DNA from: an uncultured Pseudomonadota bacterium
GTDB lineage: Bacteria; Babelota; Babeliae; Babelales; UBA12411
DNA length: 64,000 bases
Assembly: GCA_964491895.1 (NCBI GenBank)
Contig: CAZBHK010000001.1
Location: 91,280 to 155,279, forward strand
Direction: 5' to 3'
Shown: positions 33,295 through 59,832 of the stretch, piece after piece
How positions within the stretch are numbered: the first letter of the stretch is position 1
Layout of the letters: each line of letters starts with the position of its first letter
Program-made: the position numbers and the translations under genes
The notes under the pieces: generated by a model
Seen by the model: only the letters and a program-made list of their open reading frames with translations
What the model was told of the DNA's origin: nothing
The model's database searches: none

Positions 33295-34777
33295 AATAGA
33301 ACTTTCCCAACAGTCTTTCTGGGATAATAATGTAGATGGCTTTTTTTTCTTATTAGAGGAAAATTTTAATTTTTCTCCTGAATTGCAAAAGATTGAGATT
33401 GAATATTATAGTAACTTAAAAGATATTTTTAAAAAGCATAAATTTACAGGGAAAGTTGGTCAGTCATTTATTTTAACACCTACACGTAATAATAAAATTA
33501 ATATGCTTTTTTTTGTAGGGCTAGGTTCGGTTAAAGAGTCTGTAGTAGACTCCTTAGAATCATTAAGAAGTTCGCTTAATAGTGTGATTTCTTTAATCAA
33601 AAGTTATTCTCTTGAAAAGAGTGTTCTTTTATTGCCTGATTCAAAAATATTCAATGTAGATGCCGAGGAGCTTGTGCGACAAGTAGTAATAAGTCTTAAT
33701 ATGGCAGATTATGAATTTATTACATTTAAGACAGATAATGTTGAAAAATTAGATGCTGTCTTATACATAGTTAATGGTTCTCATGATAAGGCGGCTAAGG
33801 AAGGTAATATTATTGGAAAGTATGTTAACAATGTTCGTCATTGGGCAGATCTACCGCCAAATATTTTGACACCTACAAAACTTAGTGAAGAGGCACAAAA
33901 GATAGCTAATGAAACTGGTTTAAAATGTATAATTTTTGGAAGAGAAAAAGCTTTAGAGTTAGGCATGGGTGGTTTTTGCGCTGTTGATTCTGGCTCTGAT
34001 CAACCTGGTAAGTTTATTATTCTCGAGTACAAGGGTTCTGCCAATGCACCAACAATTGCTTTTGTTGGTAAGGGTGTAACATTTGATAGTGGTGGAATAA
34101 GTTTGAAACCTTCTAATAGCATGACTGGCATGAAATATGATATGTCAGGAGCTGCAGCAGTTATAGGTGCAATGGGCGCAATAGCAGAGCTTAAGCTAAA
34201 TATCAATGTTATAGGTATAGCTCCAGCAGTTGAAAATATGCCTAGTGGCAAAAGTGATCGGCAAGACGATATATTAACATTTATGAATGGTAAGACAGCA
34301 GAGATTATCAGTACGGATGCTGAAGGTAGACTAATCTTGGCTGATGCTTTATGTTATGCGGAAAAATATTATAAGCCAGATGTTATTGTTGATATAGCGA
34401 CTCTTACTGGCGCATGTGTTGTAGCTTTAGGTCATGCATTTTCTGCGTTGATGACACGTAATGATAAACTTTCAAAACAGCTTATAGCTGTTGGTGAGTT
34501 TGTGGGTGATCGTCTTTGGAGGTTACCATTACATGATATTTATAAAGGCGGTAATAAATCTGTTGTTGCTGATATAGCAAACTGTGGTTCTCCCGATTAT
34601 GGAGCAGGCACTATTACAGCAGCTTTATTTTTAGAAAACTTTGTTGTTAGAACACCATGGGCGCATATAGATATAGCTGGAACTGCAGATCGAGTTCCAG
34701 GTACCAATAAGGGTGCTACTGGTGTTGGTGTGAGGTTGTTTGTAGAGTTTGCAAAAAAGTTCGATAAAAATTTCTAA
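33287..34777 (+). CDS. pepA: Leucyl aminopeptidase (M17)
   Basis: GKGVTFDSGG, MKYDMSG, TDAEGRL, DIATLTGA, WAHIDIAG. Confidence 0.96.
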   Translation: MIKIELSQQSFWDNNVDGFFFLLEENFNFSPELQKIEIEYYSNLKDIFKKHKFTGKVGQSFILTPTRNNKINMLFFVGLGSVKESVVDSLESLRSSLNSVISLIKSYSLEKSVLLLPDSKIFNVDAEELVRQVVISLNMADYEFITFKTDNVEKLDAVLYIVNGSHDKAAKEGNIIGKYVNNVRHWADLPPNILTPTKLSEEAQKIANETGLKCIIFGREKALELGMGGFCAVDSGSDQPGKFIILEYKGSANAPTIAFVGKGVTFDSGGISLKPSNSMTGMKYDMSGAAAVIGAMGAIAELKLNINVIGIAPAVENMPSGKSDRQDDILTFMNGKTAEIISTDAEGRLILADALCYAEKYYKPDVIVDIATLTGACVVALGHAFSALMTRNDKLSKQLIAVGEFVGDRLWRLPLHDIYKGGNKSVVADIANCGSPDYGAGTITAALFLENFVVRTPWAHIDIAGTADRVPGTNKGATGVGVRLFVEFAKKFDKNF

Positions 34778-34784
34778 AAAATAA

Positions 34785-35744
34785 TTAAATCGTCACTTCA
34801 GCATAAACAGAACAATTTGGACTACCTACAGGTAGTTTAGATGAGATATCTATTACGATTTTTTTTGGATCATGTAGGCCTCTTTCGTATTTTAAATAGG
34901 ATGTATTTTTGAGATTATATTGATTTTCTGATAAAATTGAGGTGATAGCAGTTTTTATATCACTAACATTTAAATTTGCTGGAAGTTCTTGATCGGGTGT
35001 AGGTTCATTATTTTCATTTGTTTGTATGTAGTGAAGAATAGGATAAGCTGTTCGTACTTCTTCTACTATATCTTTATTTAAAATCATCCATTCAATGATT
35101 ATGCCTGAGCTATGTTTACCTAGAAATCTGAATTTACAAGTACTGCTTGGATTATTGATTTTTGATTCGATAGTATGTTTTTTTTGTTCTATTATTTCGC
35201 GAATTAGAATAGCAATATTATTAGCATTCATTTCTACGGGATAGATAGTTTTATTACCCCTTCCCTTTTGTTGGAGACGGACTCCCTGTTTATTTTCATA
35301 ACCATCTCGTTTATTTGGAGTGTAATGCCCACCTCCATTTTTATCTCCATGCGTAATATGGTCAAGAGCTATAAGACTTATAGGACTTATCTCTGCTTTT
35401 ACTGCTAATTTTTTAATAAAATCTTTGTTTTCTTTATCTTGTGCAAAAGTATATTTGGCTTGTTCTTGTTTAGAAGCACTATCTTTATTTTCGCATAAAC
35501 CATTAAATGTTGCGAATAGGGCACGCCTTGCTCTTTTTTTTGGAGATTGCTGCTTGTCTAAATCAACAAAAAGTTTAGCTCGACTTTTAGGGGTAAGTAG
35601 GTGTGGTTTTTCTGGTGTTCTGAATTCTTCTTTATCAGATTCTTCATCGTATGTTGGGTCCACCAGAGATTTATTGTTAGGTGCACTAAAAAGTTGTGTA
35701 GTCAATAAGGTTATAAAAAGTGTTGATATAAATTGTTTAATCAT
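34785..35744 (-). CDS. Secreted protein with a bacterial EndoU-like ribonuclease domain
   Basis: Signal peptide; HITHGD..GGGHY (H129, H140), KTIYP (K165), G..SG.I..I.TAYP match the EndoU_bacteria pattern by eye. Confidence 0.7.
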   Translation of the reverse strand: MIKQFISTLFITLLTTQLFSAPNNKSLVDPTYDEESDKEEFRTPEKPHLLTPKSRAKLFVDLDKQQSPKKRARRALFATFNGLCENKDSASKQEQAKYTFAQDKENKDFIKKLAVKAEISPISLIALDHITHGDKNGGGHYTPNKRDGYENKQGVRLQQKGRGNKTIYPVEMNANNIAILIREIIEQKKHTIESKINNPSSTCKFRFLGKHSSGIIIEWMILNKDIVEEVRTAYPILHYIQTNENNEPTPDQELPANLNVSDIKTAITSILSENQYNLKNTSYLKYERGLHDPKKIVIDISSKLPVGSPNCSVYAEVTI

Positions 35745-35920
35745 GAATGTTCCTTTCTATTTTTTAATTATAAAATTTTTTGTAAAAGGAGTCAAAAGGT
35801 TAGTCTTGAAAAATGCAATTTTAGGGCTAAAAATCAGCTAAAACCCTAAGTTTTGTATTCTTTGTTCATAATATGGCATTATATAGATAGGGCTATTTCC
35901 CAAAAAAATTAAGGAAGATT

Positions 35921-36547
35921 ATGAATATTACGCCAGAACTATTAAGTTATATAAGTGTTTGGATAGCGAATGCTATCTATTTTTTATCGCTTTTCCCACA
36001 GATGTTATTGGATTATAAGCTTAAGACTGTAAATGGTATTAATGATTTAACCCTTTTTGGTTTAGTATTAGGTTATATTGCATATTGGTATCATATATAT
36101 TTTCAAGGATTTCCATTACCATACCAGGCATTGGTTCCATTAAGTGTTTTGGCTTCATTTATTATAGTTATACAAAGCTTTTATTATGATGGTTATGCGG
36201 GTAGACGGCAATTTATCTATTTATATCTATTTTTAATAGTTTTTTCTGGATTATTGCTACCAATAGCCTTCAAATATCCTGTTATAGCTGCTATACTATC
36301 TGGATGGCTATATTTTGTTATATGGCTGTTATATATGCTTCCACAAATATATAAGATTTATACGGAGAGGTCAGTAAGGGGCTTTAGCTATGGTTATTTA
36401 ACATTTTTAACCATAGGGTTATTAATGGAGTTTATAGCTGGTTTTTTTATAAAGCTTTCATTGCAGCTTTTTTTTAATTGTTTGAGGGGGATAGTAGGTT
36501 ATTTAATATTTAGCATATTTTTTTATATTTATAGAGATAATAGATAG
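35921..36547 (+). CDS. PQ-loop repeat transporter (two PQ motifs, about 7 TM)
   Basis: SLFPQMLLDYKLKTVNGI and MLPQIYKIYTERSVRGFS. Confidence 0.85.
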   Translation: MNITPELLSYISVWIANAIYFLSLFPQMLLDYKLKTVNGINDLTLFGLVLGYIAYWYHIYFQGFPLPYQALVPLSVLASFIIVIQSFYYDGYAGRRQFIYLYLFLIVFSGLLLPIAFKYPVIAAILSGWLYFVIWLLYMLPQIYKIYTERSVRGFSYGYLTFLTIGLLMEFIAGFFIKLSLQLFFNCLRGIVGYLIFSIFFYIYRDNR

Positions 36548-36563
36548 TTTTTTAGGGGTTGGG

Positions 36564-37184
36564 ATGTTTTCTGTAGAAAGTATGGCGTTGGGAGCCGTAT
36601 GGTTAATATGTATTATATATTTTAGTTCTATTTTGCCGCAAATATTTCTTAATTATAAATTAAGGAGTGTTACAGGTCTAAGTAATCTAATGTTATTTGG
36701 GTTACTTATTGGTTATATTGCGGAGACATATTATGTTGAATGCTTGTATTTACCTAACGGTTATCGGGTGATGTTACCCTTGGGAATTATTGCAGCGATA
36801 GTATTATGTTTTCAGAAAATTTATTTTGAAGGCTTATCTTCTAGTAAGGGTTTTTTAAATATCTTAGTAGGCATTATTGGAATAAGTTTTTTCTTTTTAC
36901 CCTTGGCATTTAAGAATTTAAGTTTAGTGGGTAATATTGCAGGGTGGATAGGTGCGTTTATTTGGTCAACTTACAAACTTCCACAGGTTGCTAAGCTTTA
37001 TAAATCAAAATCTGTTTATGGTTTTAGTTTTTTCTTTGTATTAATACTTTGGGTAGGTTCCTTTTTAGAATTTATTGCTGCTATGATATTAAAATTACCA
37101 GGACAAACTATTTTTAATGGATTATATGGAATTATTGTTAATTCTGTTTTAATGTTCCAATTTTTTCTATATCGAAATAACTAG
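36564..37184 (+). CDS. PQ-loop repeat transporter, tandem paralogue
   Basis: ILPQIFLNYKLRSVTGLS and KLPQVAKLYKSKSVYGFS. Confidence 0.85.
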   Translation: MFSVESMALGAVWLICIIYFSSILPQIFLNYKLRSVTGLSNLMLFGLLIGYIAETYYVECLYLPNGYRVMLPLGIIAAIVLCFQKIYFEGLSSSKGFLNILVGIIGISFFFLPLAFKNLSLVGNIAGWIGAFIWSTYKLPQVAKLYKSKSVYGFSFFFVLILWVGSFLEFIAAMILKLPGQTIFNGLYGIIVNSVLMFQFFLYRNN

Positions 37185-59565: not shown

Positions 59566-59832
59566 ATGTATAACAAATTAGTTATTTCTTTTTTATTATG
59601 TACTACAATAATTTTTTCTGCGCCAAATAATATTGATTTAAATTATGATGCTTTTACATGCTTTTTATTTAAGCGATATACAGACATTAAAAACTCTAAA
59701 ACAGTTGGAGAATCTAAGCGATATTTAATTATGCGTACAATTGATTCTATATTTGTGGGTGGGAGTTTTGATAATTTGGATCCTATTGTACGAGAAGAGG
59801 CAATTAGGTTACTTAGAGAGTTTAACGCTTGA
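59566..59832 (+). CDS. Small hypothetical secreted protein (88 aa)
   Basis: Signal-like N-terminus ending FSAPNN; 9 nt after the nupC stop; co-oriented. Confidence 0.65.
   Translation: MYNKLVISFLLCTTIIFSAPNNIDLNYDAFTCFLFKRYTDIKNSKTVGESKRYLIMRTIDSIFVGGSFDNLDPIVREEAIRLLREFNA

Follow-up and report, generated by a model that had tools for sequence, protein, structure and literature searches.

The window analysed here, a stretch of 64,000 nucleotides, belongs to a metagenome-assembled Babeliales/Dependentiae genome from groundwater, a group that lives inside protists, and one of its genes raises the question of what such a bacterium would do with a toxin-type RNase domain placed behind an apparent export signal. 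The ORF list contained a complete coding sequence of 319 amino acids followed by a TAA stop at 34785-35744 (-), in a genome of 864 kb with about 89% coding, 719 ORFs, and 31% G+C DNA. A putative ribosome-binding site, AAAGGAA, was read from the sequence at 35751-35757 (-), 6 nt before the ATG, and a consensus scan revealed a promoter-like site (TTGACT-17 nt-TATAAT, 11 of 12 matches) at 35767-35795 (-), which ends 22 nt upstream of the ATG. Promoter-like sites were not enriched over the whole region (8, compared with 6.0 ± 2.2 in shuffles), and this one, for which only position and quality count, is suggestive of a promoter. The codon-usage score of the gene was 0.26 per codon in frame, compared with -0.14 and -0.21 out of frame (interquartile range of the proteome, 0.24-0.36), and all three parts of the gene showed native codon usage. 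An antisense ORF at 35425-35841 (+) was dismissed as a shadow ORF because its codon score, 0.10, was well under that of the gene. The gene sequence was identical in four groundwater runs (two samples of one study, all DNA runs), and strain variation is therefore uninformative on selection. These results showed that the ORF is an intact, natively coded gene.

The first 20 residues, MIKQFISTLFITLLTTQLFS (35685-35744, -), resemble a Sec signal peptide in their pattern of charge and hydropathy, in agreement with the signal peptide proposed in the initial annotation, and cleavage is likely before A21-P-N-N. In the N-terminus MIKQFISTLFITLLTTQLFS followed by APNN, a single lysine (K3) precedes an uncharged h-region from residue 4 to 19, with a 9-residue Kyte-Doolittle mean of up to 2.3, and a small-residue c-region (L-F-S before A21). 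This hydrophobic stretch may alternatively be an uncleaved membrane anchor. The genome encodes three secretins and two T2SSE ATPases, and one cultured Dependentiae is reported to have nucleases that are secreted and a very large proportion of proteins with signal peptides (PMC6561590). The 'FSAPNN' junction recurs in an unrelated 88-aa ORF at position 59566 of the window.

The central part of the protein, residues 118 to 239 (35028-35393, -), was identified by profile searches as a candidate bacterial EndoU (Tox-EndoU, PF14436) RNase domain. The Pfam profile matched residues 127-236 over its positions 5-128 of 129 (E = 4.2e-5), with a score of 24.3 bits that is just below the curated cut-off of 25.3 bits; in a six-frame search of the genome the same profile scored 26.4 bits, above the cut-off, and this gene was its only match. 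A profile of 75 Babeliales EndoU domains gave 28.6 bits (E = 4.6e-8 within the genome's own 719 ORFs), the runner-up scoring 7.5 bits, and hhalign in global mode gave a probability of 91% across the whole domain. Profiles of 35 and 75 domains detected the protein, in local mode initially through the C-terminal half only, and a seed profile of just 8 Babeliales domains did not detect it. The Babeliales family profile also matched the solved EndoU toxin 5HKQ_A. A PDB sequence search with the protein and the PADLOC and NCBIfam searches returned no matches, and the Pfam search of the protein reported no match to the eukaryotic EndoU family, PF09412. Judged by these scores, membership in PF14436 appears borderline at Pfam's threshold and consistent over three profiles. 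The span given in the initial annotation, 35037-35372, lies inside the domain, and its limits were found here to be wider, at about 35028-35393 (-).

Residue conservation was counted over an alignment of 72 EndoU sequences (the query and 71 relatives). An alignment made with the full-length query was dropped, as it placed the family histidines on H48 and a Gly-Leu-Cys, and the misalignment was corrected by trimming the query to start at residue 100 or 115. The catalytic-type histidines H129 (35358-35360, -) and H140 (35325-35327, -), with G138 between them (35325-35360 in all), occupy columns that are invariant in 72 of 72 sequences, as does P235. The K165-T166-I-Y-P169 motif (35238-35252, -; family consensus K-T-F-F-P) falls in columns holding T/S in 72, P in 69, and K in 43 of the 72 sequences, and the T232-A-Y-P235 motif (35040-35051, -), which marks the end of the EndoU domain in typical toxins, falls in columns holding S/T in 71/72, Y/F in 71/72, and P in 72/72. 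Besides all invariant columns, the protein retains T166, P169, T232, and Y234. The conserved active-site set of EndoU is H, H, [SNT], and [SNT] (Zhang et al. 2012, PMC3482391), and in this alignment H129, H140, T166, and T232 are all present. The motifs listed in the initial annotation (T43-P-E-K, T51-P-K, S67 to F77, D-H129-I-T-H-G-D, G-G-G-H140-Y, and K165-T-I-Y-P) were re-derived at the same positions, and its unnumbered T-A-Y-P was located at T232-P235. With a PF14436 match that spans the domain and H129 and H140 in invariant columns, its assignment to EndoU stood.

The first half of the domain is unusually compact, so that the enzyme could be impaired. The spacing between the two histidines is 11, compared with a family median of 20, and that from the second histidine to T166 is 26, compared with a family minimum of 34; the N-terminal subdomain is the shortest seen, being at least 8 residues under any of the 71 relatives between the second histidine and the K-T motif. 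The family-typical W172 is replaced by Met. Taken together, the sequence comparisons showed the central region to be a divergent bacterial EndoU homologue with its catalytic residues intact, and activity is predicted.

An AlphaFold model of residues 115-245, made with the 72-sequence alignment, reached a pLDDT of 78 and a pTM of 0.72. It consists of a helix, two strands, a helix, and four strands; H129 lies in the first of these helices and T232 in the final strand, and the predicted two helix-plus-sheet units follow the order described for EndoU (BECR-type). A Foldseek search of this model against the PDB and BFVD, run without a control EndoU model, gave no match to an EndoU entry and none that reached significance, the best E-values being 0.13 and 0.064, respectively. 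A first model, of residues 100-319, was set aside; its pLDDT was 65, with the histidine region under 50, and a fold search with it is meaningless.

The domain is followed by a C-terminal extension, residues 240-319 (34788-35027, -), which measured 80-83 aa and so fits the estimate of about 80 aa made earlier. No Pfam match and no paralogue in the genome were found for it, and in the AlphaFold model it is predicted, at low confidence, to be alpha+beta. The protein as a whole had been called an orphan, and the searches bore this out: phmmer against 1.84 billion representative proteins and a single-sequence word-index search of 5.8 billion proteins each returned only the protein itself, and searching the 5.8-billion-protein collection with an alignment profile added four EndoU fragments, none similar in architecture. 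When Babeliales genomes were searched in six frames, first 61 and later 261 of them, the only matches were weak and spurious. The best of these (L064) looks, from its sequence, like an unrelated CYTH-like ORF.

The gene lies between pepA and PQ-loop genes in a slot that varies across relatives: some have no gene there after pepA, and others have a TnpB-like gene, a UCH-type protein with a signal peptide, or an orphan. A 165-aa signal-peptide ORF in the same slot of one relative (L040) is unrelated to the protein studied here. These results showed the gene to be an insertion specific to this lineage, at a site whose content varies.

The initial annotation stated that such domains normally sit at the C-terminus of polymorphic toxins with an immunity gene downstream, and this setting was indeed seen in Babeliales. 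PF14436 domains were found in 94 of 261 genomes of the order, mostly at the ends of ORFs of 600-2000 aa with an immunity ORF directly after, and in 30 of the 35 EndoU ORFs sampled an ORF of 125-260 aa lay within 30 nt downstream. The present gene has no same-strand ORF downstream; it is followed by pepA, which runs towards it on the opposite strand, and only 7 nt separate the pepA stop (34775-34777) from the EndoU gene stop (34785-34787), which upholds the reported lack of an adjacent immunity gene. Nor is the domain at the extreme C-terminus, as it occupies residues 118-239 of 319, with only the signal and a linker of about 100 residues before it. When 31 downstream ORFs from Babeliales were compared with the genome, no homologue was found except the housekeeping enzyme Dtd; the strongly matching candidate, C3:36415-36801, is this D-Tyr-tRNA deacylase. 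Pfam CdiI_4 was absent from the genome, as were spare toxin/immunity cassettes and paralogous loci, PF14436 having its single match in this gene. An immunity gene elsewhere in the genome, which had been named as evidence that would count against the initial annotation, was thus not seen among homologues of the Babeliales immunity ORFs or CdiI_4.

In summary, we consider it somewhat likelier than the reverse that the gene product is a stand-alone EndoU-family endoribonuclease that is exported by the Sec pathway and aimed at host RNA. The domain would derive from the polymorphic EndoU toxins with Sec signals of which Babeliales have many, and it would have lost the large carrier region and the immunity partner. 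The enzyme would pass the inner membrane unfolded and fold only outside the cytoplasm, so that the producer would need no antidote. It may then leave the cell via the type II/type IV-pilus-like secretin machinery encoded in the genome, or in vesicles, and cut the RNA of the protist host in a metal-independent reaction that yields 2',3'-cyclic phosphate ends. The crossing of the outer membrane and the choice of host RNA as target are the steps that we infer. The outcome could be damage to or reprogramming of the host, or the release of nucleotides for a parasite that is unable to make its own.

It is unlikely that the protein is still an antibacterial toxin, that is, a cut-down Babeliales Sec-signal EndoU polymorphic toxin directed at competing bacteria that share the host cell, with immunity that is unlinked, of an unrecognised family, or unneeded since the producer would have no entry receptor. 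The frequency of PF14436 in the order, in 94 of 261 genomes and mostly at the ends of long ORFs with immunity partners, fits this explanation, and immunity families are so diverse that one could be missed. However, the protein has no carrier or entry domain in the approximately 100 residues between the signal and the toxin domain, which itself lies away from the C-terminus, the genome has this one EndoU with neither a downstream immunity gene nor spare cassettes, and homologues of the collected immunity ORFs and of CdiI_4 were lacking from it.

An equally improbable explanation is a periplasmic or surface housekeeping RNase, comparable to RNase I of E. coli, which would turn imported or environmental RNA into salvaged nucleotides and would not be delivered into the host as an effector. 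A Sec signal alone reaches the periplasm only, and about one-fifth of the ORFs of the genome have signal-like N-termini, so that such a signal is no mark of an effector. Dependentiae are also without nucleotide synthesis, and secreted and cytoplasmic nucleases, EndoU included, were proposed to degrade host polymers (PMC6561590). Against this, an enzyme of that kind is expected in related genomes and was found in none of 261; the slot is variable; and neither the basic repeat nor the additional C-terminal domain is explained.

This basic repeat lies in a charged, Lys-rich linker, residues 21-117 (35394-35684, -), for which no family match was found, Pfam giving none over residues 22-120. The translation contains the motif twice, as T51-P-K-S-R-A-K-L-F59 (35568-35594, -) and as S67-P-K-K-R-A-R-R-A-L-F77 (35514-35546, -), the latter comprising the nuclear localisation signal ('NLS') and 'RxLF' motif of the initial annotation. 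The common core, [S/T]-P-K-x-R-A-[K/R]..L-F, is written in different codons in the two copies, so they are not a recent DNA duplication, and the pattern [ST]P[KR][KRS][KR]A occurred in this protein only among the 719 ORFs of the genome. In the host-directed reading that we favour, the repeat would most simply be a nucleic-acid-binding or partner-binding tail.

The initial annotation instead supposed that the RNase enters the host nucleus via PKKRARR and that a cyclin-CDK docks at RRALF and phosphorylates TPEK, TPK, and SPKK, so that activity or location would track the host cell cycle. We regard this as very unlikely. The organism is an intracellular parasite of eukaryotes (PMC6561590), and one relative has, in this slot, a protein with a signal peptide and a UCH domain of eukaryote type. 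Every motif is at its stated place; the pattern matches found here are K-K-R-A-R-R at residues 69-74, [ST]-P-x-[KR] at 43, 67, and 142, and R74-A-L-F77. The combination is unique to this protein among the 719 ORFs, and the repeat of its core in different codons hints at selection on the peptide. The motifs are also rare on the basis of composition: when the linker was shuffled 20,000 times, at least three S/T-P occurred in 1.7%, [KR]3-x-[KR]2 in 2.8%, and RxLF in 2.5%, frequencies that are not probabilities of function because the motifs were chosen after reading the sequence.

This post hoc choice itself counts against the proposal, and chance alone gives matches to short linear motifs (3-7 residues) wherever a disordered stretch is rich in Lys, Pro, and Ser. 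The same basic cluster fits the SPKK nucleic-acid-binding motif and the R-x-[KR]-R convertase site equally well, copy 1 (RAKLF) departs from the RxL pattern, and S67 is only 7 residues from the RxL, closer than expected for a CDK site and its docking motif. As the protein has no homologues or strain variants, conservation of the motifs is not assessable, and delivery to the host cytosol is itself unproven. A match to the NLS, CDK, and cyclin consensuses would not by itself establish membership in those classes, and nuclear and cell-cycle targeting, being read from short sequence patterns, appears weakly founded. Its fullest form is highly improbable, namely a bacterial 'nucleomodulin' RNase in which the repeat would mimic nuclear-import and cyclin-CDK signals, cleavage of nuclear RNA would be tied to the host cell cycle, and the C-terminal domain would be a built-in regulator replacing the immunity protein.

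Finally, we see hardly any likelihood that the gene is what is left of a toxin cassette, decaying or catalytically dead and open by chance. Its extreme orphan sequence, its weak profile scores, and an N-terminal subdomain shorter than in any of 71 relatives might suggest this. Against it, chance is unlikely to keep a frame of 319 codons open in 31% G+C DNA, codon usage is native in all three parts, the gene has its own promoter-like site and ribosome-binding site and keeps all invariant family residues, and a reduced genome (864 kb, about 89% coding) has little space for non-functional sequence.

The Dependentiae are widespread parasites of protists, nearly all of them uncultured, and hardly any of their effectors have been put to the test. 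EndoU, one of the commonest bacterial-warfare domains in Babeliales, here appears freed from carrier and antidote behind a plain export signal, a change to be anticipated if a toxin is turned against the host or to feeding. Provided that it is active, the enzyme would be a compact EndoU variant of about 120 residues and would test how far the first subdomain can shrink within this fold. The advance is incremental, as the idea of a host-directed secreted EndoU dates from 2011 and the case is a single metagenome-assembled genome of an uncultured organism with no relatives of the protein.

Four known systems are comparable. The protein is similar to the eukaryotic EndoU/XendoU enzymes (PF09412; PDB 2C1W) in superfamily and in the logic of a catalytic His-His pair with Ser/Thr (PMC3482391). 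However, the eukaryotic enzymes are larger and Mn- or Ca-dependent. Some animal members also have signal peptides. The bacterial Tox-EndoU domains (PF14436; CdiA-CT of E. coli STECO31, PDB 5HKQ) contain, in the order also seen in the protein, H-I-x-x-G-[DE], G-x-H, K-[ST]-x-[FY]-P, and [ST]-A-[YF]-P, their profiles match the whole domain, and a metal-independent RNase chemistry is predicted by homology; unlike them, the protein is not the tip of a large delivery protein, carries an extra 80 residues after the domain, and has no immunity gene.

For EndoU proteins of Wolbachia and Ehrlichia that are predicted to be secreted, cleavage of host transcripts was proposed (Zhang, Iyer and Aravind 2011, PMC3113570), and because this idea was published in 2011, the ranking of the locus as the strongest novel-system candidate was too high. 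The likeness is one of concept, comprising a predicted secretion signal, an obligate intracellular bacterium, a place outside a toxin-immunity neighbourhood, and a presumed host-directed role, whereas the present protein comes from the phylum Dependentiae. The Sec-signal EndoU polymorphic toxins of Babeliales, which with their immunity genes were likened to Neisseria MafB/MafI (PMC4287609), belong to the same order and toxin family and have a Sec-type N-terminus, as is predicted for the present protein. At 600-2000 aa, they have a carrier region, the toxin domain in last place, an immunity ORF of about 125-145 aa within 30 nt, and often spare cassettes, features absent from the gene described here, and they are the probable evolutionary source of its domain.

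The EndoU gene (window 34785-35744, minus strand) runs uninterrupted for 319 codons from ATG to TAA, with a codon score of 0.26 per codon in frame, within the interquartile range of the genome's ORFs (0.24-0.36), and scores below zero in both other frames. The start codon is preceded at 6 nt by AAAGGAA and at 22 nt by the end of a TTGACT-17-TATAAT site that agrees with the consensus at 11 of 12 positions. Codon usage, the promoter-like site, AAAGGAA and the gene setting mark it as a working gene. A 138-codon ORF antisense to the linker-coding part (window 35425-35841, plus strand) had a low codon score (0.10) and was treated as a shadow ORF. pepA (Peptidase_M17) is convergent, with 7 nt between the two stop codons, and upstream lie two divergently transcribed PQ-loop genes, tandem paralogues encoding 7-TM transporters (window 35921-37184, plus strand). 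Tandem PQ-loop paralogues also follow pepA in relatives, in up to three copies (L040:6201-8539; loci L050 and L052), and the order pepA to PQ-loop is conserved and lineage-typical.

By sequence, the central domain of the protein is an EndoU domain, as the initial annotation had proposed. The sole Pfam family matched was EndoU_bacteria (PF14436; E = 4.2e-5), aligning aa 127-236 with profile positions 5-128 of 129; the score of 24.3 bits was one bit under the curated cut-off, whereas a six-frame genome search gave 26.4 bits, over the cut-off. A profile built from 75 EndoU domains of other Babeliales genomes scored 28.6 bits on the protein versus 7.5 for the runner-up among the genome's 719 ORFs, and global hhalign gave 91% probability across the whole domain. 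The EndoU family profile matches the solved toxin CdiA-CT (5HKQ_A) end to end. The only invariant columns of a 72-sequence alignment were H129, G138, H140 and P235 (query numbering); T166 (T/S in 72/72), T232 (S/T in 71/72), P169 and Y234 are also retained. H129, H140, T166 and T232 are the set corresponding to the Tox-EndoU signature H, H, [SNT], [SNT] (Zhang et al., PMC3482391). The translation carries D-H129-I-T-H-G-D, G-G-G-H140-Y and K165-T-I-Y-P at the residues first reported, and the terminal T232-A-Y-P235 is followed by about 80 residues, matching the C-terminal domain length described earlier.

The predicted domain is unusually compact. The two histidines are 11 residues apart (family range 11-26, median 20), the distance from the second to T166 is 26 residues (family minimum 34), and Met stands where the family usually has Trp after K-T-F-F-P. 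A first structure model (aa 100-319) was poor. A second (aa 115-245, 72-sequence alignment; pLDDT 78, pTM 0.72) placed H129 on a short helix and K165-T166 on a hairpin, followed by a long helix and a meander of four strands, the last bearing T232. This predicted order of elements agrees with two BECR units as published (PMC3482391). Foldseek searches of PDB and BFVD with this model returned no EndoU entry and nothing significant; the matches, all non-significant, were small RelE/BrnT/HigB-type RNase toxins and NTF2-like sheets. This negative weighs neither for nor against the fold, as a typical EndoU model might likewise fail to retrieve 5HKQ.

In the N-terminus, K3 is followed by hydrophobic, uncharged residues up to approximately position 19 and then by L-F-S|A-P-N-N. 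The exact F-S-A-P-N-N junction after a hydrophobic stretch recurs in an unrelated 88-aa ORF without a Pfam family, starting MYNKLVISFLLCTTIIFSAPNN (window 59566-59832, plus strand); no third ORF of the genome has such a junction. By a crude filter, similar signal-like N-termini occur in about 22% of the genome's ORFs and are therefore not by themselves the mark of an effector. Three secretins and two T2SSE-family ATPases (C3:84887-85372, C8:33065-33541, C8:37470-37940, C5:85448-86587 and C4:107289-108407, on contigs of the same genome) make a route across the outer membrane plausible, and we infer that the protein is secreted. Such machinery, for outer-membrane export or pili, is a big outlay for this genome of 864 kb (about 31.5% G+C, 9 contigs, estimated 97.6% complete).

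PF14436 is strikingly frequent in Babeliales: 94 of 261 genomes carry it, at up to 10 copies per genome, and most copies terminate ORFs of 600-2000 aa, often with fragments after them. Downstream ORFs were counted in 30 loci fetched from the EndoU loci of other Babeliales genomes (L003-L032, L069-L108). An ORF of about 125-260 aa lay at most 30 nt downstream on the same strand of 30 of the 35 EndoU-bearing ORFs; 21 of these grouped by similarity into a single cluster that has no Pfam family, and one other matched CdiI_4, a CDI immunity family. Against this background the query gene is an exception. It is the sole EndoU gene of its genome and is short with an internal toxin domain, unlike the order's usual EndoU ORFs. 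The reported absence of an immunity gene was borne out, as no ORF lies downstream at the locus and the genome holds no homologue of any collected Babeliales immunity ORF or of CdiI_4. Only one strong match emerged; it was a housekeeping D-Tyr-tRNA deacylase and was rejected.

The initial annotation also read nuclear-localization, CDK and cyclin-docking motifs in the linker, and T43-P-E-K, T51-P-K and S67-P-K-K-R-A-R-R-A-L-F77 are indeed present. When the linker (97 aa) was shuffled 20,000 times, with patterns picked after the sequence had been read, at least three S/T-P occurred in 1.7%, at least two [ST]Px[KR] in 0.8%, [KR]3-x-[KR]2 in 2.8% and RxLF in 2.5%. On composition alone each motif would be infrequent, and of 719 ORFs this one alone combines them all. 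More telling than these frequencies is a longer motif that occurs twice, T51-P-K-S-R-A-K-L-F and S67-P-K-K-R-A-R-R-A-L-F; this pattern is found in no other protein of the genome and its copies are encoded by different codons, which hints that the linker peptide matters, whatever its role. The first copy does not match RxL, and the basic residues also form what we take to be a literal SPKK nucleic-acid-binding motif and, presumably, an R-x-R-R convertase-type site. Neither strain variants of the protein (four groundwater runs, two samples of one study) nor homologues were found. A nuclear, cell-cycle role is possible but unsupported.

The protein proved an orphan, as first described: nothing but the query itself came back from phmmer on 1.84 billion representative proteins or from a word search of 5.8 billion proteins, and a six-frame search of 261 Babeliales genomes found no relative. 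The top six-frame match was dismissed as CYTH-like and unrelated, judged by eye from its sequence. The linker, EndoU domain and C-terminal extension have no paralogue in their own genome. The exact protein was found only on groundwater metagenome contigs; the nearest pepA genes (at most 61% identity) come from MAGs labelled Candidatus Babeliales or Dependentiae. Relatives keep the NifU-pepA-PQ-loop-NurA neighbourhood but differ in the slot behind pepA. This slot is empty in L043 and L049-L052, and in the closest relative it holds a TnpB-type gene (L037:5974-6537; HTH_OrfB_IS605, 69.8 bits). Elsewhere it holds a 165-aa signal-peptide orphan (L040:5601-6095), a signal-peptide protein whose UCH (deubiquitinase-type) domain is borderline, together with a DUF5829 protein (L053:5524-7547), or begins with a 310-aa ORF resembling the latter by eye (L042:3609-4538). 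The EndoU gene is thus specific to its lineage and sits in a variable slot where exported proteins tend to be found; native codon usage speaks against recent acquisition from a foreign source.

The protein is most economically read as an EndoU endoribonuclease that stands alone and is exported by Sec. Such an enzyme would have been drawn from the Babeliales toxin pool and would act outside the bacterial cytoplasm, with host RNA the most likely target; an antidote would be unneeded because the protein would fold only after export and would not be aimed at kin. Dependentiae are obligate intracellular protist parasites with Sec export, numerous signal-peptide proteins and secreted nucleases (PMC6561590). 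Particular to this protein are its architecture, a signal, a repeated basic motif, a minimal EndoU and an extra C-terminal domain, and its complete lack of relatives among the proteins and genomes searched. Its earlier rating as the strongest novel-system candidate overstates its novelty, since a secreted host-directed EndoU is a kind already known, having been proposed in 2011 for Wolbachia and Ehrlichia (PMC3113570).
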